From assembly GCA_963555985.3 (NCBI GenBank), contig OY820591.1, positions 384,001-448,000 of the forward strand: a stretch of 64,000 nucleotides of DNA, given 5' to 3'. This stretch comes from Dehalococcoidia bacterium. GTDB lineage: Bacteria > Chloroflexota > Dehalococcoidia > Bin125. Position 1 is the first letter of the stretch. Each line of letters starts with the position of its first letter. The position numbers and the translations under genes are program-made. Shown here in pieces: positions 9,341 to 58,806 of the stretch. The notes below the pieces were generated by a model. The model was not told the DNA's origin and did not search any database. It saw nothing but the letters and a program-made list of their open reading frames with translations.

Positions 9341-9395
9341 CCCTCTCCACCCGCACTGCGGGGGGAGATGTCCCCGAGGGACAGAGGGGGGTCCG
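9341..9395 (+). repeat. REP-like palindrome family A, copy 1
   Basis: CCCTCTCCACCCGCACTGCGGGGGGAGATGTCCCCGAGGGACAGAGGGGGGTCCG; recurs at 20812, 23172 and 58754 (reverse). Confidence 0.9.
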
Positions 9396-11668: not shown

Positions 11669-13864
11669 ATGCGGCGTGATGCGTGGCCCGACCCTGCTTG
11701 GTGGATCTGGCGTCGGTTGACGTCGGTCAAGTGGGCGATCGGGCTGATTTTGGCGGCGGCGCTGTTTTCGGCGGTGGGGGTGGTGATCCCGCAGGTGCCG
11801 CCGCAGCTTGCCGATATCCCCGCGCAGGTCGAGGAGCACATCGAGGCCCAGCGCCCCACTTGGGGCTGGTTCACCGACGTGCTGGCCGACTTCCCCTGGT
11901 TCTACGAGACCAATGGCGGCATCTTCAATCTCTACAAGCAGCCCTACTGGTACGCGGTAGTGGCGCTGGTGGCGTTGGCGATCTCGGTCTGTACGGTTAG
12001 CCGCGCTCCCCCGATCTGGCGCACCGTGCGGCGGCCGCCCAAGCGCGTCAATGCGGCCTATTTCGAGCGGGCGCGGCATCGCTATGCGGTAGATGCGCCG
12101 CCCGGAACCGATCCGGTTGCCGCGCTCAGCGCCCGTCTGAAGGCTGCGCGCTATCGGGTCGAGTCGATTGCTTCGAACGATGGCGCGACGCTGCTCTTCG
12201 CCGACCGCTTCGGCTGGGCGCAGTTGGCGACGTTCATCACGCATCTGGCGCTGCTGATCCTGCTCGGCGCGACGCTCGTGACCAAGTTCGCGGGTGAGGA
12301 GTACCAGTTTTGGGTGGCTGAGGGCGAGAGTCACCCGCTCTTTGCGCCGGGCGCGGAACGGCCGCAGGTGCAGATCATCGTGGATGATGCGGTTGCCCGT
12401 TTCGCAGACGACGGCCAAGCGCTCGACTTCCGCAGTCTGGTGCGCGTGGCCGAGGGCGGAACTGAGGTCGCGGGGGGCGATGTGACGGTGAACGGGCCGC
12501 TCCACGCTGCCGGTTACCGCGTGCATCAGGCCGCCTACTGGGAGCACGGCGCGGAGTTGCAGGTCTTCGATCACGGCAGCGGACAGCTGATCTACTCCGA
12601 AACGCACTTCCTCGACCAGCAGATCGTCGGCCCCCGCGTCCGGATCGAGCGCGGCGGCGCGCTGGTTTCAGAGGAAGTGATCGGCCTGGAGCACATAGTC
12701 GCGTTGCCGGACGACGCCTCGGAGGAGACGCTGGCTCGCTACGAGGGCGCGGGCTACACGCTGATCCCGCTGGATGGGGAACGTTCGTTGGCGATCGCGC
12801 TCGTACCTGCGCCGGAGCAGGCGGGCGGGTTCGAGTTTTGGTATCGGGTGCTTTCGCTGCCGCCGGATACGAGCGGCCTCACGCCCGCCGATCTTGGCAT
12901 CAACGCTGCGCCGCCTGAGGAACAGTCCTATGTTCCCCGTGCGCGAGTCATCATCGACGACGAGATCGCCTTTGAGGGGACGCTCACGCTGGATCAAGAG
13001 GAAGGCGCGGCCCGATTCACGGCGCTGCCGCTACCGGAGGGCGGTCAGTTGGTCGTCGGTTTCGCCGATGTGGAGACCGGCGAGCAGTTTTTCTACTACT
13101 CGCTCGTGAGCGCCGAAGATCGGGGCGAACTCGCGCCCGGCGAGCAGATCACGATCGGCGGCCTGACTCTGATCTACGAGGGCGCGGAAGCTGCGAGTCC
13201 GCCCCAGGGCAGCCTTGAGGTTGGCGAGACGCGGACGGTGGGCGCGGTCGAGATCACCTGGCTAGGCGCGGAGTCGGTCTTCTACAGCGTGCTGCCCGAT
13301 GTTCCGGGCGCGGATGGCGATGCGCTGGTGGCGCTGGAACGGTTCGGTCAGGCGCGAACTGCTGCGGTCTTTGATGCTCAAGGCGGCGAAGACGTCGAGC
13401 TGGCCATCGGCGCGACCAACCAGTCCAGCGCCGGCGGACAGGTCGGACGTCCCTCGCGGTTAGTGCTCGGTTTGGGCGGCGGCGCGGGGCGGATTGAACT
13501 GGACGAAGGACAGGAGATCGTCCAGAGCGGCTACCGCTACCGCTACGCGGGCCCGCGCGAGTTCACGGGACTGAACGTGCGCCGCGATCCGGGCGGGATC
13601 GCCTTCTGGGTGGGGATTGGGTTGGGACTGTTGGGCATGTCGCTCACCTTCTTCATGCCCCGCCGCCGCCTCTGGGCGCGGATTGTGGATGGTCGGGTGC
13701 AGCTGGCGGGTCAGGCCGGACACGGGGTCGATTACACGCGCGAGCTGGAGCGGATCGCCGAGTCGCTCAACGCAGACGAGCCACCGCCGCGCGGCCGTCT
13801 AGAGTGGAAACGGCGAGGCGTGAGCCGCTTCGAGGGCGACTACCGGGTTGCGAGCGACGAGTGA
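11669..13864 (+). CDS. resB: Cytochrome c biogenesis protein ResB/CcsB-like (long)
   Basis: LTSVKWAI..., VIPQ, ITHLALL, VNGPL, TGLNVRRDPG, FFMPRRRLW. Confidence 0.8.
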   Translation: MRRDAWPDPAWWIWRRLTSVKWAIGLILAAALFSAVGVVIPQVPPQLADIPAQVEEHIEAQRPTWGWFTDVLADFPWFYETNGGIFNLYKQPYWYAVVALVALAISVCTVSRAPPIWRTVRRPPKRVNAAYFERARHRYAVDAPPGTDPVAALSARLKAARYRVESIASNDGATLLFADRFGWAQLATFITHLALLILLGATLVTKFAGEEYQFWVAEGESHPLFAPGAERPQVQIIVDDAVARFADDGQALDFRSLVRVAEGGTEVAGGDVTVNGPLHAAGYRVHQAAYWEHGAELQVFDHGSGQLIYSETHFLDQQIVGPRVRIERGGALVSEEVIGLEHIVALPDDASEETLARYEGAGYTLIPLDGERSLAIALVPAPEQAGGFEFWYRVLSLPPDTSGLTPADLGINAAPPEEQSYVPRARVIIDDEIAFEGTLTLDQEEGAARFTALPLPEGGQLVVGFADVETGEQFFYYSLVSAEDRGELAPGEQITIGGLTLIYEGAEAASPPQGSLEVGETRTVGAVEITWLGAESVFYSVLPDVPGADGDALVALERFGQARTAAVFDAQGGEDVELAIGATNQSSAGGQVGRPSRLVLGLGGGAGRIELDEGQEIVQSGYRYRYAGPREFTGLNVRRDPGGIAFWVGIGLGLLGMSLTFFMPRRRLWARIVDGRVQLAGQAGHGVDYTRELERIAESLNADEPPPRGRLEWKRRGVSRFEGDYRVASDE

Positions 13865-13869
13865 GCAGA

Positions 13870-15525
13870 ATGAGCGGCGCAGTCGATCAACTTCACGGCA
13901 AGCTGTTCTTCGGCGACAACCTGGAAGTGCTGCGGCGCGACTTTCCCCACGAGAGCGTGGACCTGATCTACCTCGATCCGCCGTTCAACTCGAACGCCAG
14001 CTACAACGTCCTCTTCCGGGATGAGAGCGGCAATGCCGCTCCAAGCCAAATCCGCGCCTTCGACGACACCTGGCACTGGGGTCCGGATGCGGTGGATGCG
14101 CTGCTCGATCTGAACGGAACGCCCGCCGGCAATCTCCTGCACTCACTCGCAGAGTCAATCGGCGAGAATCAGCTCACTGCCTATCTCTGCATGATGGGGG
14201 TGAGGCTGGTTGAGCTGCAGCGTGTGCTGAAACCGAGCGGCAACATCTACCTGCACTGCGACGACAACGCCGCTCATTACCTGCGAATCCTGATGGATGT
14301 GGTGTTTGGCCCCACCCAATATCGCAATGACATCATCTGGCGGCGCGCGATCGCTCACAGCGATGCAAGACGTTTCGGGCGCATCACTGACCACATCCTC
14401 TTTTACAGCAAGTCCGATCAGCGCTATTGGGATGGTCGGGCAGCGGCGACCCCAAGATCGGACGAAGAATTGCAGTCCGCCTATCCGTCGGAGGACGAGC
14501 GCGGTCGGTATCGCAATAGCGACCTGACGGCCCAAGGAGTCCGACAGGGAGAGTCTGGTCAAACGTGGCGCGATTACGAGGTCACTCGCCGCCGCCGGCA
14601 CTGGAGTCCGCCCAGAACCGGTGCGTACGCCGAGTACATTGAGCGCGAGTTCATTCCCGGCTACCGCAGCATTGCCGGCCTGCATGATCGCTTGGACGCG
14701 CTTGAAGCTGCCGGTCTGGTGCGACATGCAGAACAAGGCGCTTGGCCCGGACTGAAGCGTTACGCCGAGGCCGACATTGGTCATCTCCCCCAGAATCTGA
14801 TCCTGCAACCGACCGGCTTCACGAACTTCAATGTGGGACGCGGGGAGCATCTCGGGTTCCCCACTCAGAAACCACTGGCGCTGCTCGAACAGCTCATCCC
14901 CGTTGCCTGCCCGCCGGGCGGGCTCGTCTTTGATCCGTTCTGCGGTTGCGGGACTACCCTTGAAGCAGCCGAACGACTCGGCCGGCGCTGGGTGGGAATC
15001 GATATCACGCATCTTGCGATCGGACTGGTTGAGGAGCGTCTTCTGCGCGCCGGGGCCGAATCCCACGTGATTGGGGCGCCCCAGGACCTTGTTTCGGCTC
15101 AGGACCTCGCCCGCCGCGACCCGTTCCAATTTGAGGCTTGGGCGGTGCAACGGTTGCGCGGCTTCCGCGCGAATCAACGCCAGTGGGGCGATGGAGGCAT
15201 TGACGGGCGGATGCGCTTTCGCAAGACCGATCGCCGCCGCCCGGACGGGCTTGCCGTTGCACAGGTCAAGTCGGGTCGGGTCAATCCTGGTGATGTGCAG
15301 GCGTTTCGCGGTGCGCTGGACGACGCCAATGCCGATCTGGGCGTGTTCATCACGCTGGACGAGGTGAGCGCCGGCGTTCAAGCCGCCGCGCGGCGTGCAG
15401 GACGGGTCGCCATCGGCGACCGCCAATATCCCATCGTGCAACTCTGGTCGCTAGCTGACCACTTCGCCGGATGCCCGCCGGAGCTTCCGATCCCCGCCGC
15501 CTGGGAGCGCCAGCGCCTGCTTTAG
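13870..15525 (+). CDS. N4/N6 DNA methyltransferase fused to Mrr-like endonuclease domain
   Basis: YLDPPFNS, PTQKP, DPFCGCGTT; C-terminal DGGIDG...QVKSG. Confidence 0.88.
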   Translation: MSGAVDQLHGKLFFGDNLEVLRRDFPHESVDLIYLDPPFNSNASYNVLFRDESGNAAPSQIRAFDDTWHWGPDAVDALLDLNGTPAGNLLHSLAESIGENQLTAYLCMMGVRLVELQRVLKPSGNIYLHCDDNAAHYLRILMDVVFGPTQYRNDIIWRRAIAHSDARRFGRITDHILFYSKSDQRYWDGRAAATPRSDEELQSAYPSEDERGRYRNSDLTAQGVRQGESGQTWRDYEVTRRRRHWSPPRTGAYAEYIEREFIPGYRSIAGLHDRLDALEAAGLVRHAEQGAWPGLKRYAEADIGHLPQNLILQPTGFTNFNVGRGEHLGFPTQKPLALLEQLIPVACPPGGLVFDPFCGCGTTLEAAERLGRRWVGIDITHLAIGLVEERLLRAGAESHVIGAPQDLVSAQDLARRDPFQFEAWAVQRLRGFRANQRQWGDGGIDGRMRFRKTDRRRPDGLAVAQVKSGRVNPGDVQAFRGALDDANADLGVFITLDEVSAGVQAAARRAGRVAIGDRQYPIVQLWSLADHFAGCPPELPIPAAWERQRLL

Positions 15526-16531: not shown

Positions 16532-17035
16532 ATGGCGGTAACGGCCAAGAATCTTGAAGATGCCTTGACGGGGGCGGGGGTTGAGCCGGATCTGGCTGCG
16601 TCGATCGCCGTAGCGATGCAGCCGTTCATCGAGAACGGCGGTGTTGCACAGGCGGAAGCAGCGAGCAGGGAACGCAGCGATTCTGACGAGGTTCGTCTGG
16701 CCCGGCTTGAGCAGAAAGTGGACGACCTCCGCGACCTGGTGATGGTCGGGTTGCAGAATGTCGATCGTCGCTTTGACGACATGGAGAAGCGGATCGACCG
16801 TCGCTTCGAGGATGTGGATCGTCGCTTCGAGGATGTGGATCGTCGCTTTGCAGAGGCCGAGAGACGAGAAGATCGTCGCTTTGAAGGTGTCGATCGTCGC
16901 TTTGAGGATGTCGATCGTCGTTTCAGCGATCTCAACAAGCGGCTCGATCGTGAGCGAATGGAACGCTGGGCGTTTGTCGTCGCAGTTGGCGGGTCGATTA
17001 CGGCCGCTTTGCTGCGCTTGTTTGGCGCGATCTGA
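16532..17035 (+). CDS. Membrane-anchored coiled-coil repeat protein (DUF1640/CCDC90-like architecture)
   Basis: Heptad VDRRFED repeats (21-bp DNA repeats), C-terminal hydrophobic tail ending LLRLFGAI. Confidence 0.75.
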   Translation: MAVTAKNLEDALTGAGVEPDLAASIAVAMQPFIENGGVAQAEAASRERSDSDEVRLARLEQKVDDLRDLVMVGLQNVDRRFDDMEKRIDRRFEDVDRRFEDVDRRFAEAERREDRRFEGVDRRFEDVDRRFSDLNKRLDRERMERWAFVVAVGGSITAALLRLFGAI

Positions 17036-17041
17036 GTAGCT

Positions 17042-17284
17042 ATGTCGGCTGTTCAGTTGGTGCTCTGGGTCAAGCAGGACTGCGGAGTCTGCCACGAGGC
17101 AGAGGACTTGATGGCCTCGTTGTCGGCGGCGCTGGGCTTCGACTGGCGGGTGCGCGAGGGCGAGTACGGCGATCGCGTACCGGTAGTGACGACCGCGAGC
17201 GGCGAGGTGTTGGCGGAGGGGCCGATCATTCCCGGCGAATTGGCGCGGCGGATTCGCGCGCTTACCGTTGCGGCTCCAGATTGA
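17042..17284 (+). CDS. Glutaredoxin-like small protein
   Basis: CGVC motif, YGDRVPVV. Confidence 0.7.
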
Positions 17285-18020
17285 TCGCGTGCAGACCGCA
17301 CTCTTTCTGCGTCGCCTCTTCCCACCACCAACGACCAGCGCGCTCGTGTTCGCCCGGATGCGTCGCCCGCGTGCAGGGTTCGCAGCCGATTGACTTGAAG
17401 CCGCGATCGTGGAGCGGGTTGTAGGGCACGCCGTAGCTCATGATGTACTGCCAGACCTGGGCGCTGCTCCAATTGGCGAGCGGATTGAACTTGACCATCG
17501 GATCGGACTCGCGCCCGAAGCCCGGGTCGAGCTGCGCTACAGGCAAGTCTGAGCGCGTGCCCGGACTCTGATCCTTGCGCTGACCCGTCACATAGGCAGA
17601 GACGCCCGCCAACGCTCGTCCAAGCGGCTCCACCTTGCGAATGCCGCAGCATTCGCCGTGACCGTCGCGGCGGAACGAGAACAGGCCCTTCTCGCGTACC
17701 AGCGTCTCCACCGCCGCCGCCTGCGGAGCGAAGACTTCAATCACCACGCCGTACCGCTCCCGCACCTGTTCAATGAAGCCCAGCGTCTCGCCGTGCAGGC
17801 GGCCCGTGTCGAGCGTGAAGACGCGAAAGCTCGTATCGAGTTTGGCAGCCTCGCGGCTGGCCATGTCGACCAGCACGACATCCTCCGCGCCGCTGAACGA
17901 GATCGTGAGGTTGGGGAAGTGCGCCAGAGCTTCGGCGATGATGTCCGAGGGGTGCGCGCGTTCCAGTTGCTCCGCCGCCTCTGTCACATTGAATGCAGTT
18001 GTGGCGGCGGATGTGCTCAT
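17262..18020 (-). CDS. cysH: APS/PAPS reductase (Fe-S type)
   Basis: [33 protein letters not shown]; start set at MSTSAA (18020). Confidence 0.93.
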
Positions 18021-18060
18021 TGCGGGCGTTCCTCGCTGTTGCCGAGTGGGTGATGCTAGG

Positions 18061-18087
18061 TGAAATGCTACTATTTCAGTCAAGATT
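18061..18087. promoter_or_regulatory. Putative Rrf2 operator in the divergent cysH/Rrf2 intergenic region
   Basis: TGAAAT-N6-ATTTCA inverted repeat; ACTATTTCAGTCAAG resembles IscR-type sites; overlaps minus-strand TTGACT. Confidence 0.5.
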
Positions 18088-18143
18088 ATCCGCATCGCGC
18101 GGAAATCGGGCGAGCGTGGCGCGCAGAGAGACCTGTTCCGGCC

Positions 18144-18614
18144 ATGATGAAGCTCTCCAGCATCAGCGACTACGGCATTCGCGCCTTGGTCGATCTCGCT
18201 CAGCGCGACGGCGGCGATCCCACACCCGCAACCGAGATCGCGCAGCGCCAGGGCATCCCCAACTCTCTGGTCGGACAGGTGCTCGCGCGTCTGCGCGCGG
18301 CGGGGTTCATCGCCTCCGTGCGCGGCGCTCAGGGCGGACACCGACTCGCGCAGCCGGCAGACGAAATCCGGCTTGACGCGGTGGTGGTGGCGCTCGAAGG
18401 CCCGCTCGCAATCGCCACTTGCCTCGAACGCGGACAGAACGCCGATGGCCAGGGCAAGGCCTCCGAGCGCTGTACCGGGGCGGCCGCGCAAGTCCCGCTC
18501 TGGGACGATGTGCGCGCCGCCATGCTGGAAGTCCTGGCCGCTCGCAGCATCGCCGACCTGGCCCAGGACGCGGCCCAACTCAGCGCTCCCGCCGGTGGCC
18601 GCTACCAAATCTGA
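18144..18614 (+). CDS. Rrf2 family regulator (CymR/IscR-like)
   Basis: [27 protein letters not shown]. Confidence 0.9.
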
Positions 18615-18674
18615 TGATCCCATCCACTCCGCGATCCGCACCGAACACCAACCCGCCAGCCAACGAGTAACCCC

Positions 18675-19628
18675 GTGAGCGTGCTCCGCCCCGCCCTCGC
18701 CGACTCCGTGCTCGACCTGATCGGCGCGACCCCGATGGTGCGCCTGCACCGGGTCGTGCCCGAAGACTGCGCCGAGATCGTGGCCAAGCTCGAATCGCTC
18801 AACCCGGGCGGCTCGGTCAAAGACCGGATCGCCCGCTCGATGATCGAGGACGCCGAGTGCCAAGGCGCGCTCAAGCCGGGCGACACGATCGTCGAACCGA
18901 CCAGCGGCAATACCGGCGTCGGACTCGCGCTTGTGGCTGCGGTCAAGGGCTACCGCCTGGTCCTGACCATGCCCGAGGACATGTCGCACGAGCGCCGCCG
19001 TCTGCTCCAACGCTTCGGCGCGGAGGTCGTGCTCACACCCGCGATCGAAGGCATGACCGGCGCGGTCTTCGCTGCCGAAGAGCTCGCCTCCGCCCCGCGT
19101 CATTTCATGCCCCAGCAGTTCGCCAACCCCGCCAACCCGGAGATTCACCGCCGCACCACCGCCCTCGAAATCTGGGCTGCGCTCGAACCGCAATTGATGC
19201 CCGACGGCGAGCGCCTGCACGCCTTCGTCACCGGCGTCGGTACCGGCGGCACGATCACCGGCGTGGGCGAATGGCTGCGCGAACGCCAGCCCGACCTCGC
19301 GATCACCGCTGTTGAGCCGCAGCGCTCGCCTGTCTTGCAAGGCGGACGCTTCGCCGTTCACGCGATCCAGGGGATCGGCGCGTCCTTCGTGCCGGGCGTG
19401 CTCAACCGCGAGATTTACGACGATGTGATCGGCGTCTCCGACGCCGACGCTGAAGCGATGACCGCCAGGCTCACGCGCGAAGAGGGCATCCTCTGCGGCA
19501 TCTCCTCCGGCGCAAACGTCCACGCCGCCCTGACCGTCGCCCAGCGCCTCGGACCCGGCCATCGCGTCGTCACCACCATCTGCGACACCGGCGAGCGCTA
19601 TCTCAGCCTGCCCCTCGGAGACAGCTAG
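18675..19628 (+). CDS. cysK: Cysteine synthase A
   Basis: [39 protein letters not shown]. Confidence 0.93.
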
Positions 19629-19699
19629 ACGACAAACTCGAACAAGGCCGAACAGAACCGAACGCGGCCGCACAGCCCGCACACCACAAGGAGCTCCAC

Positions 19700-20803
19700 A
19701 TGAGCGTCAAGGTCTACATCCCGACACCGTTCCGCAAGATCACCGGCAACCGCATCTTCGTCGACGCCGATGGGATCGACGTCAACGGCGTCCTGCGCGA
19801 CCTCGAACAGCGTTTCCCCGGTTTTGGCGAGATGGTCTTCGACGGCGAACAGGAACTGTTCGAGCACGTCAACGTCTACGTCAACAACCAAGAGATCCAC
19901 TCGCTCGAAGGCGCAAGCACGCCCGTCTCCGACGGCGACGAAGTCGCGGTAATTCCCGCCATCGCCGGCGGCGCGGCGATGACCCCCGAGCAGGTCGAGC
20001 GCTACTCGCGCCACCTGATCATGGACCAGGTCGGCCCGCTCGGACAGCGCAAGCTGATCGACGGCAAGGTGTTGGCGGTCGGCGCAGGCGGACTCGGTTC
20101 GCCGGTGCTCGTCTATCTCGCCGCCGCCGGCATCGGCACGATCGGGATCGTCGACTTCGATGTGGTCGATCGCTCCAATCTCCAGCGCCAGATCATCCAC
20201 GGCACCTCCGACATCGGCCGCCCCAAAGTCGAATCCGCCCGCGACCGCATCCACGACATGAACCCCAACGTCACGGTCGTCAGCCACACCGAGCCGCTCA
20301 CGTCCGAAAACGCGATGGAGATCATTCCCGAGTACGACGTGATCATCAACGGGGCCGACAACTTCGCCACCCGCTACCTCGTCAACGACGCCGCCTTCCT
20401 CTCCGAGAAGATCCTGGTCGACGGCTCGATCTTCCTCTTCGAGGGTCAGGTCACGACCTTCTATCCGGGCGAGGGCTGCTACCGCTGCCTCTATCCGTCG
20501 CCGCCGCCTCCGGGCATGGTGCCGAGCTGTGCGGAAGCCGGTGTGTTGGGCGTGCTGCCGGGGACGGTCGGCGCGATCCAGGCGACCGAAGCGATCAAGG
20601 TGCTGCTGGAGCTGGGCGAGCCGCTCAAGAACCGGCTGCTGCTCTATGACGCGCTGGCGATGGACTTCCGCACCGTCAAGATTCGCCGCGACCCCGCCTG
20701 CCCGCTCTGCGGCGACGCCCCCAGCGTCATCGAACTCATCGACTACGAAGAGTTCTGCGGCTCTCCCTTCCACGAGGGCCCCGCAGTCGCCGCCGGAGGC
20801 TAG
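19700..20803 (+). CDS. moeB: MoaD/ThiS ubiquitin-like domain fused to MoeB/ThiF E1-like adenylyltransferase
   Basis: Ubl ending IPAIAGG, then ERYSRH, GAGGLGS, SNLQRQ, CYRC, CPLC; no rhodanese domain. Confidence 0.92.
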
Positions 20804-20811
20804 GCAAGGAA

Positions 20812-20865
20812 CCCTCTCCCCCCGCACCGCGGGGGGAGATGTCGCGCAGCGACAGAGGGGGTCCG
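20812..20865 (+). repeat. REP-like family A, copy 2
   Basis: CCCTCTCCCCCCGCACCGCGGGGGGAGATGTCGCGCAGCGACAGAGGGGGTCCG. Confidence 0.9.
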
Positions 20866-20947
20866 GTCACCGACCGCAGTCCTCAAACCGCCGAGGTGAC
20901 CCCGGACGCAAGCGACACAAAACAAAAAGAGCGAGAGGATCCACCGC

Positions 20948-21247
20948 ATGGCAGTCGAAGTCCGAGTCCCTTCCATGCTGCAAAAGTTCACCGACGGCGA
21001 GAAGCTCGTCCAAGTCGAGTCTGAGAGCGTCGGTCAACTGCTCCACTCGCTCGAAGCCAACTACCCGGGCATCGGTCATCAGCTGCTCGAAGACGGCCAA
21101 CTGCGGCGCTTCGTCAACATCTACCTCAACGACGAAGACATCCGCTTCCTCGACGGCATGGACACCTCACTCGCCGACGGCGACGTGCTCGCGATCCTGC
21201 CGGCCCTCGCCGGAGGCGATCACAGTAATCCGGGGGGAGCCCGCTAG
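20948..21247 (+). CDS. MoaD/CysO-like sulfur carrier with C-terminal extension
   Basis: LRRFVNIYLNDEDIRF...ILPALAGG followed by DHSNPGGAR. Confidence 0.9.
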   Translation: MAVEVRVPSMLQKFTDGEKLVQVESESVGQLLHSLEANYPGIGHQLLEDGQLRRFVNIYLNDEDIRFLDGMDTSLADGDVLAILPALAGGDHSNPGGAR

Positions 21248-22206
21248 TGGTCACCGCCGCGCCCGTTCGCTATCAGTCGCTGCTCGACACCATCGGCGAT
21301 ACACCCCTGGTTCGGCTCCAGCGGATGTCGCCCAGCCCCGACGTCTCGATCTGGGTCAAGCTCGAAGGCCAGAACCCCACCGGCTCGGTCAAGGACCGGA
21401 TCGCCAAAGCAATGATCGACGCGGCTCACGCCGATGGCTCGCTCCAACCGGGGCAGACGATCCTCGAACCGACCAGCGGCAACACCGGACTCGCCATCGC
21501 CCTGATCGGACGCCTTTCCGGTCACCCCGTGCGCTGTGTGATGCCGGAGTCAGTCTCAGTCGAGCGCCGCGACCTGCTCCGGTTCTTCGGCGCAGAGGTG
21601 ATCCTCTCCCCCGGCGAGACCGGTTCCAACGGCGCGGTGCGCATGGCTAAGGAGATCTACGCCCAGGATCCCTCGGTCTTCATGCCGATGCAGTACGAAA
21701 ACGCCGCCAACCCCGGCGCGCACTACGAGACCACCGGCCCCGAAATCCTGCGCGACTGCCCCGAACTCACCCACTTCGTCGCCGGCCTCGGCACCGGCGG
21801 CACCCTCACCGGCGTGGGCCGCTACCTCAAGGAGCAGCGCCCCGACGTGCGCATCGTCGCCGCCGCCCCGCACCCAGGCGATCTCGTGCAGGGCCTGCGC
21901 TCGCTCGACGAGGGCTACATCCCCCCCGTGCTGGACGAGTCGGTACTGGACGCGCGGATCATGGTCGACAGCCGCACTTCGTTTGCAGTCGTCAAGCAGC
22001 TGCTGGAGGACGAGGGCATCTTCGCCGGCATCAGCTGCGGCGCCGCCGTCCGCGCCGCCCTGCGCATGGCCGAACGCCTGGAGTCGGGACACATCGTCGT
22101 GCTCCTGGCGGACGGCGGTTGGAAATACCTCAGCACCGGTCTCTGGAGCCGCGACTACGAGGACATCGCCGGAGACGAAGAGATCGAAGGCAAAATCTGG
22201 TGGTAA
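21247..22206 (+). CDS. cysM: CysM-type (sulfur-carrier-dependent) cysteine synthase
   Basis: NPTGSVKDR, GLRSLDEGYIP, ADGGWKYLSTG, C-terminal EGKIWW similar to actinobacterial CysM. Confidence 0.85.
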   Translation: MVTAAPVRYQSLLDTIGDTPLVRLQRMSPSPDVSIWVKLEGQNPTGSVKDRIAKAMIDAAHADGSLQPGQTILEPTSGNTGLAIALIGRLSGHPVRCVMPESVSVERRDLLRFFGAEVILSPGETGSNGAVRMAKEIYAQDPSVFMPMQYENAANPGAHYETTGPEILRDCPELTHFVAGLGTGGTLTGVGRYLKEQRPDVRIVAAAPHPGDLVQGLRSLDEGYIPPVLDESVLDARIMVDSRTSFAVVKQLLEDEGIFAGISCGAAVRAALRMAERLESGHIVVLLADGGWKYLSTGLWSRDYEDIAGDEEIEGKIWW

Positions 22207-22242
22207 CCCGCACTTCGTTCCTGGAGGCAGTACCGGGCTATT

Positions 22243-22263
22243 CCCTCTCCCAGAGGAAGAGGG
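22243..22263. repeat. Short hairpin CCCTCTCCCAGAGGAAGAGGG
   Basis: Imperfect inverted repeat related to the family A core. Confidence 0.5.
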
Positions 22264-22315
22264 GACCAAATCTTGACCTCACTCACACCCACAGTCCCCA
22301 GAAAGGACACCCCCA

Positions 22316-23161
22316 ATGGCCGAATACGCACACCCCGAAAAGCTGGTCTCGACCGATTGGGTCGCCGATAACCTCGACGACCCTGGCGTCGTCCTAATCG
22401 AGGTCGACGTCGACACCTCCGCCTACGACGAGGGCCACCCGCCCGGCGCAGTCGCCTGGAACTGGACTTCGCAGCTCCAGGATCAGGTCACCCGCGACGT
22501 CGCTTCGCGCGAGACCGTCGCCGAACTGCTCCAGCGCGCCGGCGCGAGCGACGACTCCCAGATCGTCCTCTTCGGCGACAACAACAACTGGTTCGCCGCC
22601 TACGCGCTCTGGATGCTCGAGCTCTACGGCGTCACCAACACCGCCCTGATGAACGGCGGCCGCGCCAAGTGGGAGGCTGAGGGTCGCGAAATGACGACCG
22701 ACGCCCCCTCGCCGCTGGCCGGCAGCATCGCCGTCGCCGAGCGCGACGAGACCCTCCGCGCTCGGATCACCGATGTGCTCGCTCACGTCGAGGCCGGCGG
22801 TCAACTGGTCGACGTCCGCTCCCCGGACGAGTTCAACGGCGTAATCATGGCTCCGCCGGGTCTGCCCGAGACCGCTCAGCGCAAGGGCCACGTGCCGGGT
22901 GCCTCGAACATCCCCTGGGTCACGGCGGTGGCCGAAGACGGCACCTTCAAGTCCGCCGACGAACTCAGCGAGATCTACCAGTCCAGAGGCATCACCGGCG
23001 ACGAACCCGTGATCGCCTACTGCCGCATCGGTGAGCGCTCCAGCCACAGCTGGTTCGCCCTCCGCTACCTCCTGGGGATCGACAACACGACCAACTACGA
23101 CGGCAGCTGGACCGAATACGGTTCGGTCGTGGGCGTGCCGATCAGCAACCCCAGCGCCTAG
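22316..23161 (+). CDS. Tandem-domain rhodanese / thiosulfate sulfurtransferase
   Basis: YAHPE, DNNNWFAAY, YCRIGERSS, YDGSWTEYG. Confidence 0.93.
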   Translation: MAEYAHPEKLVSTDWVADNLDDPGVVLIEVDVDTSAYDEGHPPGAVAWNWTSQLQDQVTRDVASRETVAELLQRAGASDDSQIVLFGDNNNWFAAYALWMLELYGVTNTALMNGGRAKWEAEGREMTTDAPSPLAGSIAVAERDETLRARITDVLAHVEAGGQLVDVRSPDEFNGVIMAPPGLPETAQRKGHVPGASNIPWVTAVAEDGTFKSADELSEIYQSRGITGDEPVIAYCRIGERSSHSWFALRYLLGIDNTTNYDGSWTEYGSVVGVPISNPSA

Positions 23162-23171
23162 GAAAATCCCT

Positions 23172-23245
23172 CCTCTCCCCCCGCACTGCGGGGGGAGATG
23201 CCGAAAGCCTGCCCCAGGCCTGAACTGGGGGCAGAGGGGGGTCCG
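23172..23245 (+). repeat. REP-like family A, copy 3, with nested insert
   Basis: Family A arms with AGCCTGCCCCAGGCCTGAACTGGG in the second loop. Confidence 0.85.
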
Positions 23246-23266
23246 ACCCGAAGCCGTAAACGACCC

Positions 23267-23647
23267 ATGAGCCAAGACCGAGTCTGGCGTCGAACCGTCG
23301 CCCGCGCGCTGAGCGCGAGCGATCCGGCGGCGTTGCCCATCTTCTTCCACGCCGCCGTCCTGAGCGACTACATCGAACGCGGCGCGAGAGTCTTGCGCAG
23401 CGACTCGGTCGGACGCCTGATCCAGCCCGGACGGGCGGTGGTCGATTTCGGCATCGTCGCAGAGACCCAAATCCACCTCCGCTGGGGAGATTTCCTCAAC
23501 CTCATCCCCGAAGCCGAGCGCGCCCACTGGCTCGATCATCTCGCGCCCCCGGATGCGAGCCGGGTCTATCTGCAAATGACCTTGCAGCCGGGCGCCTGCC
23601 ACGACGACGGCCCCCTCCGCGACTGGACTCTCGAGGCGTCCGCTTGA
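23267..23647 (+). CDS. Hypothetical protein
   Basis: ATG 23267; 126 aa; overlaps next start; C-terminal PGACHDDG. Confidence 0.7.
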   Translation: MSQDRVWRRTVARALSASDPAALPIFFHAAVLSDYIERGARVLRSDSVGRLIQPGRAVVDFGIVAETQIHLRWGDFLNLIPEAERAHWLDHLAPPDASRVYLQMTLQPGACHDDGPLRDWTLEASA

Positions 23648-24246
23648 CTGAGTTTCCGAAGCTGCCCGACGACCAGTACGCGATCATCTACGCCGATCCG
23701 CCCTGGGACTACAAGGGACAGCTCCAACACGCCGGCCCGGGCAGCGGCGACACCGGCGGCGCAGTGCGCCACTACGACACGGTGAAGCTCTCTGACCTCA
23801 AACAACTCGATGTCGCCCGGATCGCCGCCGCCGACGCGCTGCTCTTCCTCTGGGCCACATCGCCCCACCTCGATCAGGCGATTGAACTGGGCAAAGCCTG
23901 GGGATTTCAGTGGGCGACGGTCGCGTTCGTCTGGGACAAGCAGCGAGTCAACCCGGGCCACTACACGCTCTCGCAGTGCGAACTCTGCCTCGTCTTCAAG
24001 CGCGGGCGGATACCAACTCCGCGCGGCAGCCGCAGCGTCCGCCAGTTGGTGTCCGTCGAGCGCGGACGCCACTCGCAGAAACCCGAGGAAGTCAGGCGTA
24101 GAATCGACGCCATGTTCCCCGCACAGCGCAAGCTCGAACTCTTCGCCCGGCCGAACACCGCACTCCCCGACGGCTGGGACACCTGGGGCGAAGAGCTTCC
24201 ACACCCACAGACCGAGCGCACGTTCTGGCAGGCTGCCTCGCCATGA
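23644..24246 (+). CDS. MT-A70 family adenine methyltransferase
   Basis: IIYADPPW, LFLWAT, AWGF, WDK, HSQKPEE, LELFAR, GWDTWG. Confidence 0.92.
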   Translation: MTEFPKLPDDQYAIIYADPPWDYKGQLQHAGPGSGDTGGAVRHYDTVKLSDLKQLDVARIAAADALLFLWATSPHLDQAIELGKAWGFQWATVAFVWDKQRVNPGHYTLSQCELCLVFKRGRIPTPRGSRSVRQLVSVERGRHSQKPEEVRRRIDAMFPAQRKLELFARPNTALPDGWDTWGEELPHPQTERTFWQAASP

Positions 24247-24752
24247 CCCTCGAATTACCCCAGTCCCTGATCGACGAGATGGTCGCGCACGCCCGCGACG
24301 ACCTGCCCAACGAGTGCTGCGGCGTGATCTCCCGCGACGCCGACGGGACGCTCAGCCTCTACCGCGCCACCAACTCCGAAGCCTCGCCCTGGCGCTTCAA
24401 CATTCCCCCGCAACAACTCCTGCACCTCTACAACGCCATCGACGCCGCCGACGGCGATCTGCTCGTGATCTACCACTCCCACGTCGCCTCCGAAGCGCGA
24501 CCCTCCCCAACCGACCTCAACATCGCGCGTCTGCACAAGGGCGGGCAGGAGTGGCCCTACTGGGTGCTAGTCTCACTCGCCTACGACCCGCCCCACGTTC
24601 GCGCTTGGCGAATCGACGACGGCGAGCAACCCGATACGGTCGCGCCTGCCGAGATCGATCTCACTGTCTCCAACGACGATGGCGCGCGCCGGCTGCGACT
24701 CGAGCTGATCGAAGTCGATGGTCGCCCGCGCGTCCGCGAAACCGCCCTCTAA
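24243..24752 (+). CDS. JAB/M67 metallopeptidase (Mec-like)
   Basis: PNECCG, YHSH, PSPTD JAMM motif. Confidence 0.92.
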   Translation: MTLELPQSLIDEMVAHARDDLPNECCGVISRDADGTLSLYRATNSEASPWRFNIPPQQLLHLYNAIDAADGDLLVIYHSHVASEARPSPTDLNIARLHKGGQEWPYWVLVSLAYDPPHVRAWRIDDGEQPDTVAPAEIDLTVSNDDGARRLRLELIEVDGRPRVRETAL

Positions 24753-24756
24753 CACC

Positions 24757-25566
24757 ATGACGGCCCCACTCTTCACCTGGGGCGAGCGCACCTGGATCGT
24801 CGGCATCCTCAATCTCTCGCCCGATTCCTTCAGCGGCGACGGTCTCAGTGATCCCGATGCGGCGCTCGCTCGCGCCACGCAGATGCTCCGCGACGGCGCC
24901 GACGCGCTCGACATCGGCGGTGAATCGACCCGTCCCGGGTTCACCCCGATCAGCGCCGAGGAAGAGCTGCGGCGCATCGTTCCGGCGATCGCCCGCATCG
25001 CCCGCGAACTCCCCCGCCTGCCTCTGAGCATCGACACCACCAAACCCGAGGTTGCCAAAGCCGCCTTCGACTCCGGCGCGAGCATCCTGAACGATATCCA
25101 CGGACTGCGAGGCGATCCGGCCCTGGCCGTAGTCGCATCCAACTACCGCGCAACCGTGATTGCGATGCATAACCAGCGCGGCCGCCCGCTTGCCGACGAT
25201 CCCGTCTGCGCCGCGCTTGACGGATTCCGAACCTCGCTCTGCATCGCGGCCGAAGCGGGCATCGCCGAAGAGCGGATCATCCTCGATCCGGGCTTCGGCT
25301 TCGCCTGGACGTTGCGCGAAAACGCGGCCATCCTCCGCCGCCTGCGCGAACTGCGCGTGCTGGGCCGACCGATCTTGGTAGGGATGTCGCGCAAGCGCAT
25401 GACCGGCGCCCAGCATGGCTGGGGCGTTGAGCGGCGGCTCGAAGGATCAGCTGCTGCGACTGCAATCGCGATCGCCAACGGCGCAGATCTCGTGCGCGTC
25501 CACGATGTCGCCGAGATGTCGCGGGTCGCGCGGATCACCGACGACATTATCCGGAGCGGCGCATGA
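24757..25566 (+). CDS. folP: Dihydropteroate synthase
   Basis: GILNLSPDSFSGDG, GGESTRPG, DPGFGF, SRK, VRVHDV. Confidence 0.95.
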   Translation: MTAPLFTWGERTWIVGILNLSPDSFSGDGLSDPDAALARATQMLRDGADALDIGGESTRPGFTPISAEEELRRIVPAIARIARELPRLPLSIDTTKPEVAKAAFDSGASILNDIHGLRGDPALAVVASNYRATVIAMHNQRGRPLADDPVCAALDGFRTSLCIAAEAGIAEERIILDPGFGFAWTLRENAAILRRLRELRVLGRPILVGMSRKRMTGAQHGWGVERRLEGSAAATAIAIANGADLVRVHDVAEMSRVARITDDIIRSGA

Positions 25567-26084
25567 CTGCCCCCGAAGCAGTGGCCGTCTTCCTCGGCCT
25601 GGGCGGTAATCTCGGCGACCGCCGCGCCAACCTCCGCGCCGCCGTGCGAGAACTGCGCGCACTCTTGGACGACCTGCGAGTCTCCGCGCTCTACGAAACC
25701 GCGCCCTGGGGCGACACCGACCAGCCCGCATTCCTCAACGCCGTCGCGCGCGGCCTCACGACACGCGCACCCCTCGATCTGCTGGACGCCACCCAGGAGA
25801 TCGAGCGCCAACTCGGACGCCAACGCAACAAGCGGCGCTGGGGCCCTCGACCAATCGACATCGACGTCCTGCTCTACGGTCAGCAGATCATCACTCACCC
25901 ACGCCTAATCGTTCCCCATCAGCACATGCAAGAGCGCGGTTTCGTACTCCGCCCGCTCGCCGATCTCGCCCCCGGTCGAACCTTGCCCAACGGCGCGCTG
26001 GTGGGAGAGTTGCTGACGATCGTCAACACCGACGACGTGCGCCGGATCGAGGGCCCGCAGTGGGCCGACGGCGACAATTGCTGA
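25563..26084 (+). CDS. folK: HPPK
   Basis: GLGGNLG, QPAFLN, WGPRPIDIDVL, PH...RGFVL.PL. Confidence 0.95.
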   Translation: MTAPEAVAVFLGLGGNLGDRRANLRAAVRELRALLDDLRVSALYETAPWGDTDQPAFLNAVARGLTTRAPLDLLDATQEIERQLGRQRNKRRWGPRPIDIDVLLYGQQIITHPRLIVPHQHMQERGFVLRPLADLAPGRTLPNGALVGELLTIVNTDDVRRIEGPQWADGDNC

Positions 26085-26093
26085 ACCAGACCT

Positions 26094-26324
26094 CTAGATA
26101 TCGTCCAACGGCTCCGGCGCGAACTCCAGACCCTCCAGATCGTCCTCCATCTCCGCCACTGTCCAGCCCGTCCAGAAGATCAAGCCTGTGATCGCCAGCA
26201 TCAACACCGCCGCCGGCAACGCCACCGCCGCATAGCTCTGCCGCCGCAAACCGAGCGCAAACCAGAGCGCCTGCAACAGCGCCAAACCCATCAAGACCAA
26301 ACCGGTCAGCCGTGTCCGCTCCAT
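26094..26324 (-). CDS. Small two-TM membrane protein
   Basis: Two hydrophobic helices plus acidic tail; start uncertain (26324 or 26336). Confidence 0.6.
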   Translation of the reverse strand: MERTRLTGLVLMGLALLQALWFALGLRRQSYAAVALPAAVLMLAITGLIFWTGWTVAEMEDDLEGLEFAPEPLDDI

Positions 26325-26362
26325 GCCCACGAGCATATCCGCCGCGTTGATAGACTCGCCCC

Positions 26363-27061
26363 ATGTCCGACGCCGCCACCGATCCCGCCCCCGAAGCGCT
26401 GCGCGAGACCGCCGAAGCGACTGAGCATCCGGCCCAAGAACGCAGCTTCGAGCCGCGCACGGCGGTTGCCGAACCACTCGCTCCACGCTCACTCTTCCTA
26501 CACCGCCGCGTCGTTCGGATCAGCCCCGAGCGGATTGAGATCCGGCCTCCGCGTTCCGCAGTCGTGTTTCCCACGATCGGCGTGGCGGTCACGGCTGGAC
26601 TGCTCGCCCTGCTCGGTACCTCGGTCGATTCGTTGCCCTTCTGGACCCTGCCCCTGCTCCTGCTGGTCGCCGTGCTGCTCTTGCCGCTTTCGGGAATCTC
26701 CCTCGTCTACGCCCTCATGGGGGCGCAGATCGTCGCTGACAAGGGCGGACAGAATGTCTCGCTCAAGCAGCGTTTTCTCGGTCTCGGAATCGGCACCAAC
26801 GAACTGATTCCCTTCTGGAAAATCCGCGAACTGCTGGTGGAGGATGAAGGCCGCGCTGTTGCCCGTGCGACGGGCGAGCTTCCCCGCGAAGAGATCGCCC
26901 AGTGGCAGCTGGTGCTGGTCAAGAAGAGCGGTACCCGGCACGTGCTGGGGCAAGTCAGCGTTCCGCGCGAACACGAGGAAGACGGCCTCGATCAGATCTT
27001 CGAGGTCGCTGACGCCTTCGCCGCACTCACCGGCGCAGAGATTCGAGGTCCGATCTGGTGA
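26363..27061 (+). CDS. Hypothetical membrane protein (2 TM + soluble domain)
   Basis: Long ORF coupled to next gene by GTGA overlap. Confidence 0.7.
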   Translation: MSDAATDPAPEALRETAEATEHPAQERSFEPRTAVAEPLAPRSLFLHRRVVRISPERIEIRPPRSAVVFPTIGVAVTAGLLALLGTSVDSLPFWTLPLLLLVAVLLLPLSGISLVYALMGAQIVADKGGQNVSLKQRFLGLGIGTNELIPFWKIRELLVEDEGRAVARATGELPREEIAQWQLVLVKKSGTRHVLGQVSVPREHEEDGLDQIFEVADAFAALTGAEIRGPIW

Positions 27062-27510
27062 CTGAGCACAATGAAGCAACCGCTTGGCAAGTCCAAATCG
27101 ACGCCGACGCCCGCGCCGCACTGGACAAGATGGGCACGATCGCCGTGATCGGCCTCTCCCCAAGACCGGAACGCGACTCGCACCGCGTCTCCGCCTACAT
27201 GCAACAGCACGGCTACCGCATCATCCCCGTCAACCCCGCCGCCGTCGGTACGGAAATCCTGGGAGAGACGGTCTACGCCGCGCTCGAAGACATCCCCCAC
27301 GAGTTCGACACTGTCAACGTCTTCCGCCGCTCGCATCAAACTGACGAGCCAATTGACGACGCCATCGCCGCCCGCGCGCAGGGAGTGCGCCAGGTCTGGC
27401 TCCAACTCGGCATCGTCAACCCGGACGGTCTCCGCCGCGCCCGCGCCGCCGGTCTGCGCGCGATTGAGGATCGCTGTCTGATGGTGGAGCATCGGCGGCT
27501 CGCTCAATAA
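27058..27510 (+). CDS. CoA-binding protein (YccU-like)
   Basis: IAVIGLS, GYRIIPVNP, VFRRS, VWLQLG, DRC. Confidence 0.9.
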   Translation: MTEHNEATAWQVQIDADARAALDKMGTIAVIGLSPRPERDSHRVSAYMQQHGYRIIPVNPAAVGTEILGETVYAALEDIPHEFDTVNVFRRSHQTDEPIDDAIAARAQGVRQVWLQLGIVNPDGLRRARAAGLRAIEDRCLMVEHRRLAQ

Positions 27511-58753: not shown

Positions 58754-58806
58754 CGGACCCCCCTCTGTCACTTCGTGACATCTCCCCCCGCGATGCGGGG
58801 GGAGAG
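58754..58806 (-). repeat. REP-like family A, copy 4
   Basis: Reverse complement CTCTCCCCCCGCATCGCGGGGGGAGATGTCACGAAGTGACAGAGGGGGGTCCG. Confidence 0.9.

Follow-up and report, generated by a model that had tools for sequence, protein, structure and literature searches.

How a gene for an adenine methyltransferase comes to lie within an operon for sulfur transfer, and whether the two have anything to do with each other, is the question raised by the locus described here. The locus belongs to a 64,000-nucleotide stretch of a Dehalococcoidia genome (contig OY820591.1, positions 384,001 to 448,000 of the forward strand; termed here the window, to which all coordinates refer), in which genes for a ubiquitin-like protein (Ubl) fused to an E1-type activating enzyme, a free Ubl, a CysM-like cysteine synthase, a two-domain rhodanese, a 126-residue protein with a conserved cysteine (termed here the Cys protein), an MT-A70-family methyltransferase and a JAB metallopeptidase follow one another on the plus strand. 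A first-pass annotation of this DNA had seen two possibilities: a modification system coupled to the sulfur relay, with the Cys protein serving as a sulfur acceptor, or an orphan methyltransferase inserted into the pathway. The analysis points to the second. Very probably, the cluster is a thiocarboxylate-type cysteine operon combined with a rhodanese/Cys-protein module and with an MT-A70 gene that is predicted to encode an orphan Type II DNA adenine methylase. The main consequence is the removal of a false lead, inasmuch as the methylase in this sulfur-relay operon would only look like a new modification system.

The distribution of the genes was traced in 40 relatives (24 of the same family and 16 of other families), which were searched with the MT-A70, Cys and JAB proteins, and 16 proteins of the window were mapped by tblastn onto 18 loci of about 19 kb and 19 shorter loci. 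The gene order found throughout the family is Lgt, CysH, Rrf2, CysK, Ubl-E1 fusion, free Ubl and CysM, followed, on the far side of a variable slot, by JAB, FolP, FolK, a 232-residue open reading frame (ORF), a CoA-binding protein and PurF. It is the slot between CysM and JAB that holds the genes in question. Among the same-family relatives it contains rhodanese, Cys protein and MT-A70 in 10 of 24 (genera g3, g7 and g8), rhodanese and Cys protein in three (G003, G005 and G009), and a 1-Cys peroxiredoxin in another three, all of genus g2 (G010, G016 and G001); it is empty, with CysM followed directly by JAB, in seven (genera g5 and g9); and in the remaining one (G021) it is broken by contig ends. 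The slot also holds fusions of an N6_N4_Mtase domain to an HNH domain in G002 and G011 and a PaREP1 protein in G024; G018 has a gene for an HNH protein inserted after the rhodanese and before the Cys protein; and in G002, G011, G019 and G024 inserted genes part the Cys protein from MT-A70. None of the six other-family loci inspected has MT-A70 in the slot, two of these other-family genomes (G030 and G034) having the order rhodanese, Cys protein, JAB, FolP; and a search of whole genomes found an MT-A70 homologue in only one of the 16 other-family relatives, and that a distant one (33% identical). The first-pass annotation had proposed neighbourhood conservation as a check, counting absence of the methylase from the cluster in most relatives, together with a lack of interaction with the Ubl components, against a coupled system; the clusters of most relatives are indeed without MT-A70. 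The gene order of the window is nevertheless no accident, since ten related genomes have the same order.

The ten in-cluster copies of MT-A70 appear, moreover, to share a single origin. A quick maximum-likelihood tree of CysM and E1 (15 rows, 683 columns) separates the genera in which MT-A70 is embedded in the cluster (g1, g3, g7 and g8) from genera in which it is not (g4, g6, g9 and g10), with an SH-aLRT support of 99 on each side. The tree of MT-A70 itself (13 rows) is congruent, with the same grouping of g3, g8 and g1 plus g7, the copy of G020 (genus g9) being excepted. Judged from these sequences, this fits one insertion of MT-A70 in the ancestor of the four genera, followed by vertical descent; the slot, where other methylase-nuclease genes gather as well, would have received it once and long ago. 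Ten occurrences that go back to one event count once, and cannot be added up as separate signs that the genes are linked in function. In G020 neither rhodanese nor Cys protein occurs in the cluster, and its MT-A70 gene is found 6 kb further downstream, flanked by PurM and a cytochrome b gene; this copy groups with those of g1 and g7 (support 94), which suggests that it may have been acquired by transfer, though its long branch makes this uncertain. G020 thus has MT-A70 without the Cys protein, and the converse is more frequent: by genome search, the Cys protein occurs without MT-A70 in 9 of the 19 relatives that have it (one of these, G021, being doubtful owing to its contig ends) and in all seven more distant genomes that have it. 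Hence nothing supports the proposal of a coupled system in which the Cys protein would serve the methylase as acceptor, the two proteins occurring apart; the proposal of an orphan insertion is upheld by the presence of MT-A70 in the cluster of only 10 of 24 same-family relatives, which form one clade with the window, by its Type II profile, and by a MunI-family enzyme encoded next to it in G019.

These last two points concern the kind of enzyme that MT-A70 is. Its gene (23644..24246, plus strand) encodes a protein that matches PF05063 well above the cut-off (73.2 bits against 23.9; E 3.3e-20) and that has a DPPW motif (D18-P-P-W21), invariant in 22 sequences and kept in 11 of 11 relatives. The PADLOC profile MTase_II (PDLC03262) matches residues 5-192, which is nearly the full length, with E 3.9e-56. 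In G019, a 178-residue ORF located after the Cys protein and directly upstream of MT-A70 matches RestrictionMunI (PF11407, E 2.4e-14) and REase_II (E 1.5e-13). Phage homologues among the matches listed are 37-43% identical and are annotated as DNA or MunI-like methylases. The AlphaFold2 model (mean predicted local distance difference test, pLDDT, 78.5) has METTL3 as its best Foldseek match (E 1.1e-13; template modelling score 0.66-0.68) and also matches the catalytic domain of Tetrahymena MTA1; the eukaryotic MT-A70 clade is itself placed within a prokaryotic radiation of restriction-modification methylases in the account of Iyer et al. (PMC4738411). Among the ORFs of the window there is no nuclease partner beside MT-A70, which is therefore classed as an orphan and not as part of a complete Type II restriction-modification system of the MunI type. 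Nor does PF11407 find a match in the window's own genome, the same search being able to detect the nuclease of G019, and among the other 40 genomes not one encodes a homologue of it.

Being small, with a DPPW motif and a Type II profile, the protein resembles both the methylases of MunI-type Type II systems and the orphan N6-adenine methylases Dam and CcrM (PMC4738411 and PMC7544214). The MunI-family nuclease directly upstream in G019 is a likeness to the former; the lack of a nuclease in the window is a likeness to the latter. Unlike any of them, it is embedded by stop/start overlaps in a biosynthetic operon and has been vertically inherited over four genera under strong constraint. The history that these observations suggest is as follows: MT-A70 would be a DNA N6-adenine methyltransferase, dependent on S-adenosylmethionine (SAM), whose source was a Type II restriction-modification cassette of the MunI type; its restriction partner would have been lost, or never been there, in every genome sampled except one; and it would have become translationally coupled to its neighbours and been retained as a solitary methylase, with DNA as its substrate and no role in sulfur transfer. 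It would thus be a candidate for a conserved orphan methylase in Chloroflexota, of restriction type and under tight constraint, unaccompanied by a nuclease in 10 of the 11 relatives of the family in which the gene occurs.

More distant homologues were sought in a sample of 300 other Chloroflexota genomes. Twenty-one of these have MT-A70 homologues, all at most 46% identical, and in the 19 loci scanned (all but L079 and L096) the neighbour is a BglII-family nuclease in six, a DndB-like protein in five and an Eco57I-type methylase in one, no recognisable partner being present in seven. In the five DndB-like cases (L084, L087, L089, L090 and L091), the MT-A70 protein is 29-33% identical and is flanked each time by a protein of 460-490 residues with a DndB-like domain (PF14072). 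To judge by sequence, this looks like a recurrent two-gene methylase module, distinct from the BglII-type pairs.

Several observations weigh against regarding MT-A70 as a solitary methylase left over from a restriction system. The MunI-family partner is seen in only one of the 11 family relatives with MT-A70, so that the case for a restriction-modification origin consists of G019 and the profile matches; and the nuclease of G019 may be a later gain. The gene is also well kept. Ratios of nonsynonymous to synonymous substitution (dN/dS), computed within genera by the NG86 method and to be read as rough values given that many dS are near saturation, are 0.05-0.20 for MT-A70, 0.05-0.27 for JAB, 0.09-0.36 for the Cys protein, 0.14-0.36 for FolP and 0.02-0.16 for CysM. 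At the sequence level MT-A70 clearly appears to be maintained under purifying selection and functional; with an identity of 71-80% and a dN/dS below the range of FolP at its lower end, it is conserved at least as strongly as its housekeeping neighbours. Such constraint is unusual for a remnant of a restriction system and means that the host uses MT-A70 for something. Nor does the gene sit loosely in its place: it overlaps both neighbours by 4 nucleotides, so that MT-A70, the Cys protein and JAB are probably translated together. The role given to the Cys protein in the present account is itself drawn from gene neighbourhood. Finally, according to PMC10810198, one phage MT-A70 enzyme requires a small protein encoded just upstream and acts on 16S rRNA.

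Since the constraint on MT-A70 speaks against a plain junk insertion, a regulatory orphan methylase is kept as the first rival. MT-A70 would then have been domesticated in the manner of Dam or CcrM, its level following the supply of cysteine, and hence of SAM, by way of an Rrf2-controlled operon. Strong purifying selection, a DPPW motif invariant over four genera, the overlaps with both neighbours and the lack of a MunI-family nuclease in the window's own genome all agree with this, and regulatory roles are established for orphan methylases such as Dam and CcrM (PMC7544214). This is nevertheless unlikely: with all in-cluster cases derived from one insertion, the position of the gene may be a historical accident; the copy in G020 occupies another locus, after PurM; and in four relatives other genes stand between MT-A70 and the Cys protein. 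Very improbable, too, is a tighter link, by which MT-A70, long fixed between the Cys protein and JAB and co-translated with them from a cysteine-responsive operon, would have its activity gated by sulfur or SAM status, or would have in the Cys protein a subunit that links sulfur transfer by the Ubl to methylation.

A third reading makes the Cys protein the specificity subunit of a two-subunit RNA or DNA methylase, similar to PNB-2, with a ribosomal or transfer RNA as target and possibly a tie to Ubl-dependent thiolation. The two genes do adjoin and overlap; the nearest solved MT-A70 proteins, in both sequence and fold, come from the METTL3-METTL14 and MTA1c complexes; and there is a phage precedent in M.EcoPA8orf6770P with PNB-2, where, as described in PMC10810198, a bacterial-type MT-A70 gene likewise has a small gene immediately upstream. 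Unlike in that pair, however, methylase and upstream protein do not go together from genome to genome here, and nothing seen here points to an RNA target. A methylase that depends on a partner in the way of PNB-2 should be found together with it, and MT-A70 is not: the separate occurrences given above, in both directions, and the genes inserted between the two in G002, G011, G019 and G024 speak against such a pairing, and the steady neighbour of the Cys protein is the rhodanese. A two-subunit methylase is on these grounds very improbable. Hardly more can be said for a restriction-modification system that is still active, in which MT-A70 would shield the DNA from a cognate nuclease whose gene lies at another place in the genome, or from one whose family is not recognised. 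Methylase and nuclease genes abound in this genome, certain 6-bp palindromes are strongly avoided in it (see below), and in an assembly that is 96% complete a nuclease gene could be missing; but PF11407 has no match in this genome in a search that is positive in G019, the nuclease of G019 is without a homologue in the other 40 genomes, and no unassigned ORF adjoins MT-A70 in the window. An orphan Type II DNA adenine methylase thus continues to be the preferred reading of MT-A70.

The operon into which MT-A70 would have been inserted is of a known type. Its core (Rrf2, CysK, Ubl-E1, Ubl, CysM and JAB) is, with small variations, the ThiS/MoaD + E1 + JAB + cysteine-synthase operon; operons of ThiS/MoaD, E1-like, JAB and cysteine synthase genes appear in row 4c of Table 1 of Iyer, Burroughs and Aravind (2006), with Chloroflexus among the hosts (PMC1779556), and ThiF proteins with an N-terminal Ubl domain beside free ThiS genes are already noted in the same article. 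The member of this type that has been studied is the set CysO-CysM-Mec+-MoeZ from Mycobacterium tuberculosis (PMC3227635). As in the CysO type of pathway, a ThiS/MoaD-fold carrier ending in Gly-Gly, a ThiF/MoeB-type E1, a CysM-type enzyme dependent on pyridoxal phosphate (PLP) and a JAMM peptidase are here found in one string. Unlike in row 4c and in MoeZ, the E1 is without a fused C-terminal rhodanese domain and has an N-terminal Ubl domain; and unlike in the CysO type, the free Ubl is tailed after its Gly-Gly, a separate two-domain rhodanese and small Cys protein are present (in some lineages only), and there is no ClpS.

In the Ubl-E1 fusion (19700..20803, plus strand; ThiS domain at residues 5-91, E 1.7e-14; ThiF domain at residues 102-335, E 6e-80), the ThiS-fold domain ends in AIAGG and is joined directly to a ThiF/MoeB-type E1, a junction kept in all eight genomes in which it was read. 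The translation contains the GAGGLGS motif and the two CxxC pairs. The best NCBIfam matches (MoeB and MoeZ) are confined to the E1 part; that to MoeZ covers model positions 5-284 of 392 and is below the cut-off. No rhodanese domain is fused to this E1, the protein stopping 32 residues past the ThiF domain. The free Ubl, a CysO-like sulfur carrier of the ThiS/MoaD family (20948..21247, plus strand; PF02597, E 8.9e-16), ends in ALAGG, with Gly-Gly at 89-90, followed by nine residues. This tail differs by genus, being absent (0 residues) in g4, g5, g6 and g10, two residues long in g7 and g8, and 6-20 residues long in g3 and g9, which implies a need for C-terminal processing that is lineage-specific. 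The CysM-like synthase gene (21247..22206, plus strand; PF00291, E 4.7e-72; TIGR01136 cysKM, 356.6 bits against a cut-off of 344) begins at the stop codon of the free Ubl, and its product is 73-92% identical in same-family loci. JAB (24243..24752, plus strand), a Mec+-like JAB/JAMM metallopeptidase (PF14464 Prok-JAB, E 2.9e-21), has in its translation both E23, within NECCG, and the H-S-H-x7-S-x2-D motif (HSHVASEARPSPTD), and is found in 39 of 41 genomes.

From the families of these proteins a pathway of four steps may be proposed. The E1 would adenylate the C-terminal Gly-Gly of the free Ubl; sulfane sulfur would convert this Gly-Gly into a thiocarboxylate; CysM would condense the Ubl thiocarboxylate with activated serine; and the JAB peptidase would free the cysteine. 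JAB probably also trims the nine-residue tail of the Ubl after Gly-Gly, and it may cleave the Ubl-E1 fusion after AIAGG. If one peptidase first lays Gly-Gly bare and afterwards sets cysteine free from its adduct with the Ubl, the standing of JAB as the one invariant partner would be accounted for. Because the E1 is without the rhodanese domain of MoeZ-type enzymes, its sulfur must be supplied in trans. In lineages with the rhodanese module, this module is, going by its family, the obvious sulfur donor to E1, and it most likely feeds sulfur to this E1, which has no rhodanese domain of its own; Cys111 of the small protein would be a possible persulfide acceptor, or the protein an adaptor.

The rhodanese (22316..23161, plus strand) matches PF00581 in two stretches and is of the SseA type, that is, a 3-mercaptopyruvate or thiosulfate sulfurtransferase. 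In its second domain the loop C236-R-I-G-E-R-S is invariant in 17 sequences. Since its match to the equivalog PRK11493 (E 6.8e-40, 136.9 bits) is below the cut-off of 250, no substrate is assigned to it. The gene of its companion, the Cys protein, occupies 23267..23647 on the plus strand. The ORF as such extends over 23198-23647, but the protein most likely starts at the ATG at 23267, since the first 23 or so residues of the long ORF find no counterpart in relatives and the protein collection has an entry of 126 residues (P0001) that is 100% identical to the shorter form. The PGACHDDG motif to which the first-pass annotation had drawn attention holds up well: its cysteine is kept in 23 of 23 aligned homologues and in seven of seven from other classes. 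An alignment of 23 homologues (A1) has 15 invariant positions, the start Met included, among which are R44, G49, R50, D60-F-G62, H70, W88, S98, C111 and D113-D-G115; in the seven other-class homologues the DDG is kept in six, and D60 is replaced by N in three, those of family f52.

The Cys protein belongs to an unnamed Chloroflexota family. It matches nothing in Pfam, NCBIfam or PADLOC, and even at E values up to 10 none of the 23 members yields a consistent Pfam match. A profile search of 1.84 billion representatives returned only 87 homologues at E <=0.001, and the family is therefore small. The AlphaFold2 model is confident (pLDDT 91), and it has no clear fold relative among solved or viral structures (best E 0.17 by Foldseek against PDB, best Z 4.8 by VIA-align against 48,161 chains, best E 0.038 in BFVD), a result that does not by itself show a new fold. 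An Imm40-like identity was considered and set aside, the nearest ESM Atlas clusters, at 0.82, being at chance level.

The steadiest feature of the Cys protein is its neighbour. It is present in 19 of the 40 relatives and in 7 of the 300 other genomes of the phylum, and it adjoins the rhodanese in 18 of the 19 relatives (the nineteenth being cut by a contig start) and, with the order reversed, in four of the seven distant genomes, which belong to other classes. Near these distant pairs no homologue of the window's Ubl, E1 or JAB is found within flanks of 1.5 kb. From this gene neighbourhood we infer that rhodanese and Cys protein form a mobile two-gene sulfur-supply unit; if the Cys protein is a sulfur acceptor, its partner is then the rhodanese. 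Tentatively, the Cys protein might be a persulfide carrier or adaptor, of a new fold, for SseA-type rhodaneses; this is doubtful, yet likelier than a methylase gated by, or coupled to, the sulfur relay. Co-folding of the rhodanese (A2) with the Cys protein (A1) gave a score of 0.00 (mark 0.32), which is evidence neither for nor against binding. Two apparent rhodanese/Cys-protein fusions (P0116 and P0129) proved to be frame-shifted ORF calls and so provide no Rosetta-stone evidence. Given its confident model and its steady rhodanese partner, the protein is a tractable target for learning how sulfur reaches E1 enzymes without a rhodanese domain.

In Actinobacteria, the rhodanese SseA/CysA2 has a small downstream partner, SseC (DUF1416). 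The present pair is similar in that a two-domain rhodanese of the CRIGERS type is followed by a small conserved protein; unlike SseC, the Cys protein of Chloroflexota matches no Pfam family.

Several side observations concern the slot and its module. In one of the three distant genomes without a rhodanese beside the Cys protein (L101; G168:C30, about 1480-2760), the next gene is of the FdhD/NarQ family; FdhD proteins transfer sulfur to the molybdenum cofactor of formate dehydrogenase. The rhodanese of G003 (L036; G003:C2, 10008-10850, minus strand) is interrupted by an in-frame stop where the other sequences invariably have Trp246, just past the CRIGERS loop; this could reflect an error in sequencing, the decay of the gene to a pseudogene or the recoding of a codon. 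The peroxiredoxin of genus g2 (loci L056, L060 and L061) is a redox enzyme located where other lineages have the rhodanese module, and in G001 it has a stop at a Gln position.

The whole string of genes extends over 18150-26084 on the plus strand, as called from the ORFs of the window with families assigned from Pfam and NCBIfam. All seven genes listed by the first-pass annotation are confirmed by these calls, in position and in strand, and the overlaps of 4 nucleotides that it reported among the last three are real: read from the sequence, they are TTGA at 23644-23647 (Cys protein and MT-A70) and ATGA at 24243-24246 (MT-A70 and JAB). At the head of the operon is an Rrf2-family transcription regulator (18150..18614; PF02082, E 1.9e-31), which is syntenic in relatives and whose start codon was picked from the alignment range, followed by a CysK-like PLP-dependent cysteine synthase (18675..19628; PF00291, E 2e-74; 72-85% identity in relatives). 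Divergent from the operon, in a position kept in relatives, lies a CysH-like PAPS/APS reductase (17262..18020, minus strand; PF01507 PAPS_reduct, E 1e-46). Downstream, FolP and FolK (24757..26084, with FolP starting at 24757; PF00809 and PF01288) continue the string; the order JAB-FolP-FolK is kept in relatives, and the two are conserved neighbours outside the sulfur relay. A scan of 17000-27500 for promoters and terminators found none above shuffled controls, and an Rfam scan of 17000-27000 gave only a chance-level microRNA match, on one of the hairpins described below.

The window's genome (3.33 Mb in 11 contigs, 96% complete and 7.5% contaminated) carries an unusually high load of methylases: Pfam finds 33 matches to the N6_N4_Mtase domain, seven to N6_Mtase, three to MethyltransfD12 (the Dam type), one to the C5 methylase and one to MT-A70, in total about 45 DNA-methylase domain matches, or about 1 per 74 kb. 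With such a load, a methylase among housekeeping genes is a common occurrence in this genome. The window itself has another case 8 kb upstream, where a 573-residue fusion of an N6_N4 methylase to an Mrr-type nuclease (13804-15525, plus strand) lies between ResB and Lgt. Several 6-bp palindromes are strongly avoided, with observed/expected ratios of 0.14 for ACGCGT and 0.18 for CTGCAG; CAATTG, the MunI-type site, is not depleted (0.96), which argues neither for nor against a MunI-type site.

The spacers of the operon also contain palindromes resembling repetitive extragenic palindromic (REP) elements. A pattern search for the core CCCCCGC-NNN-GCGGGGG found four copies in the window against 0.11 expected, at 9348-9364, 20819-20835, 23178-23194 and 58785-58801. 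Two of these are GC-rich hairpins in operon spacers: that at 20819-20835 lies between the Ubl-E1 fusion and the free Ubl, and that at 23178-23194 between the rhodanese and the Cys protein. A 23-nucleotide form, CTCCCCCCGC-NNN-GCGGGGGGAG, matches the genome 95 times on each strand, the reversed control not once, and three of the four copies in the window have in common a longer flank that includes a second small hairpin.

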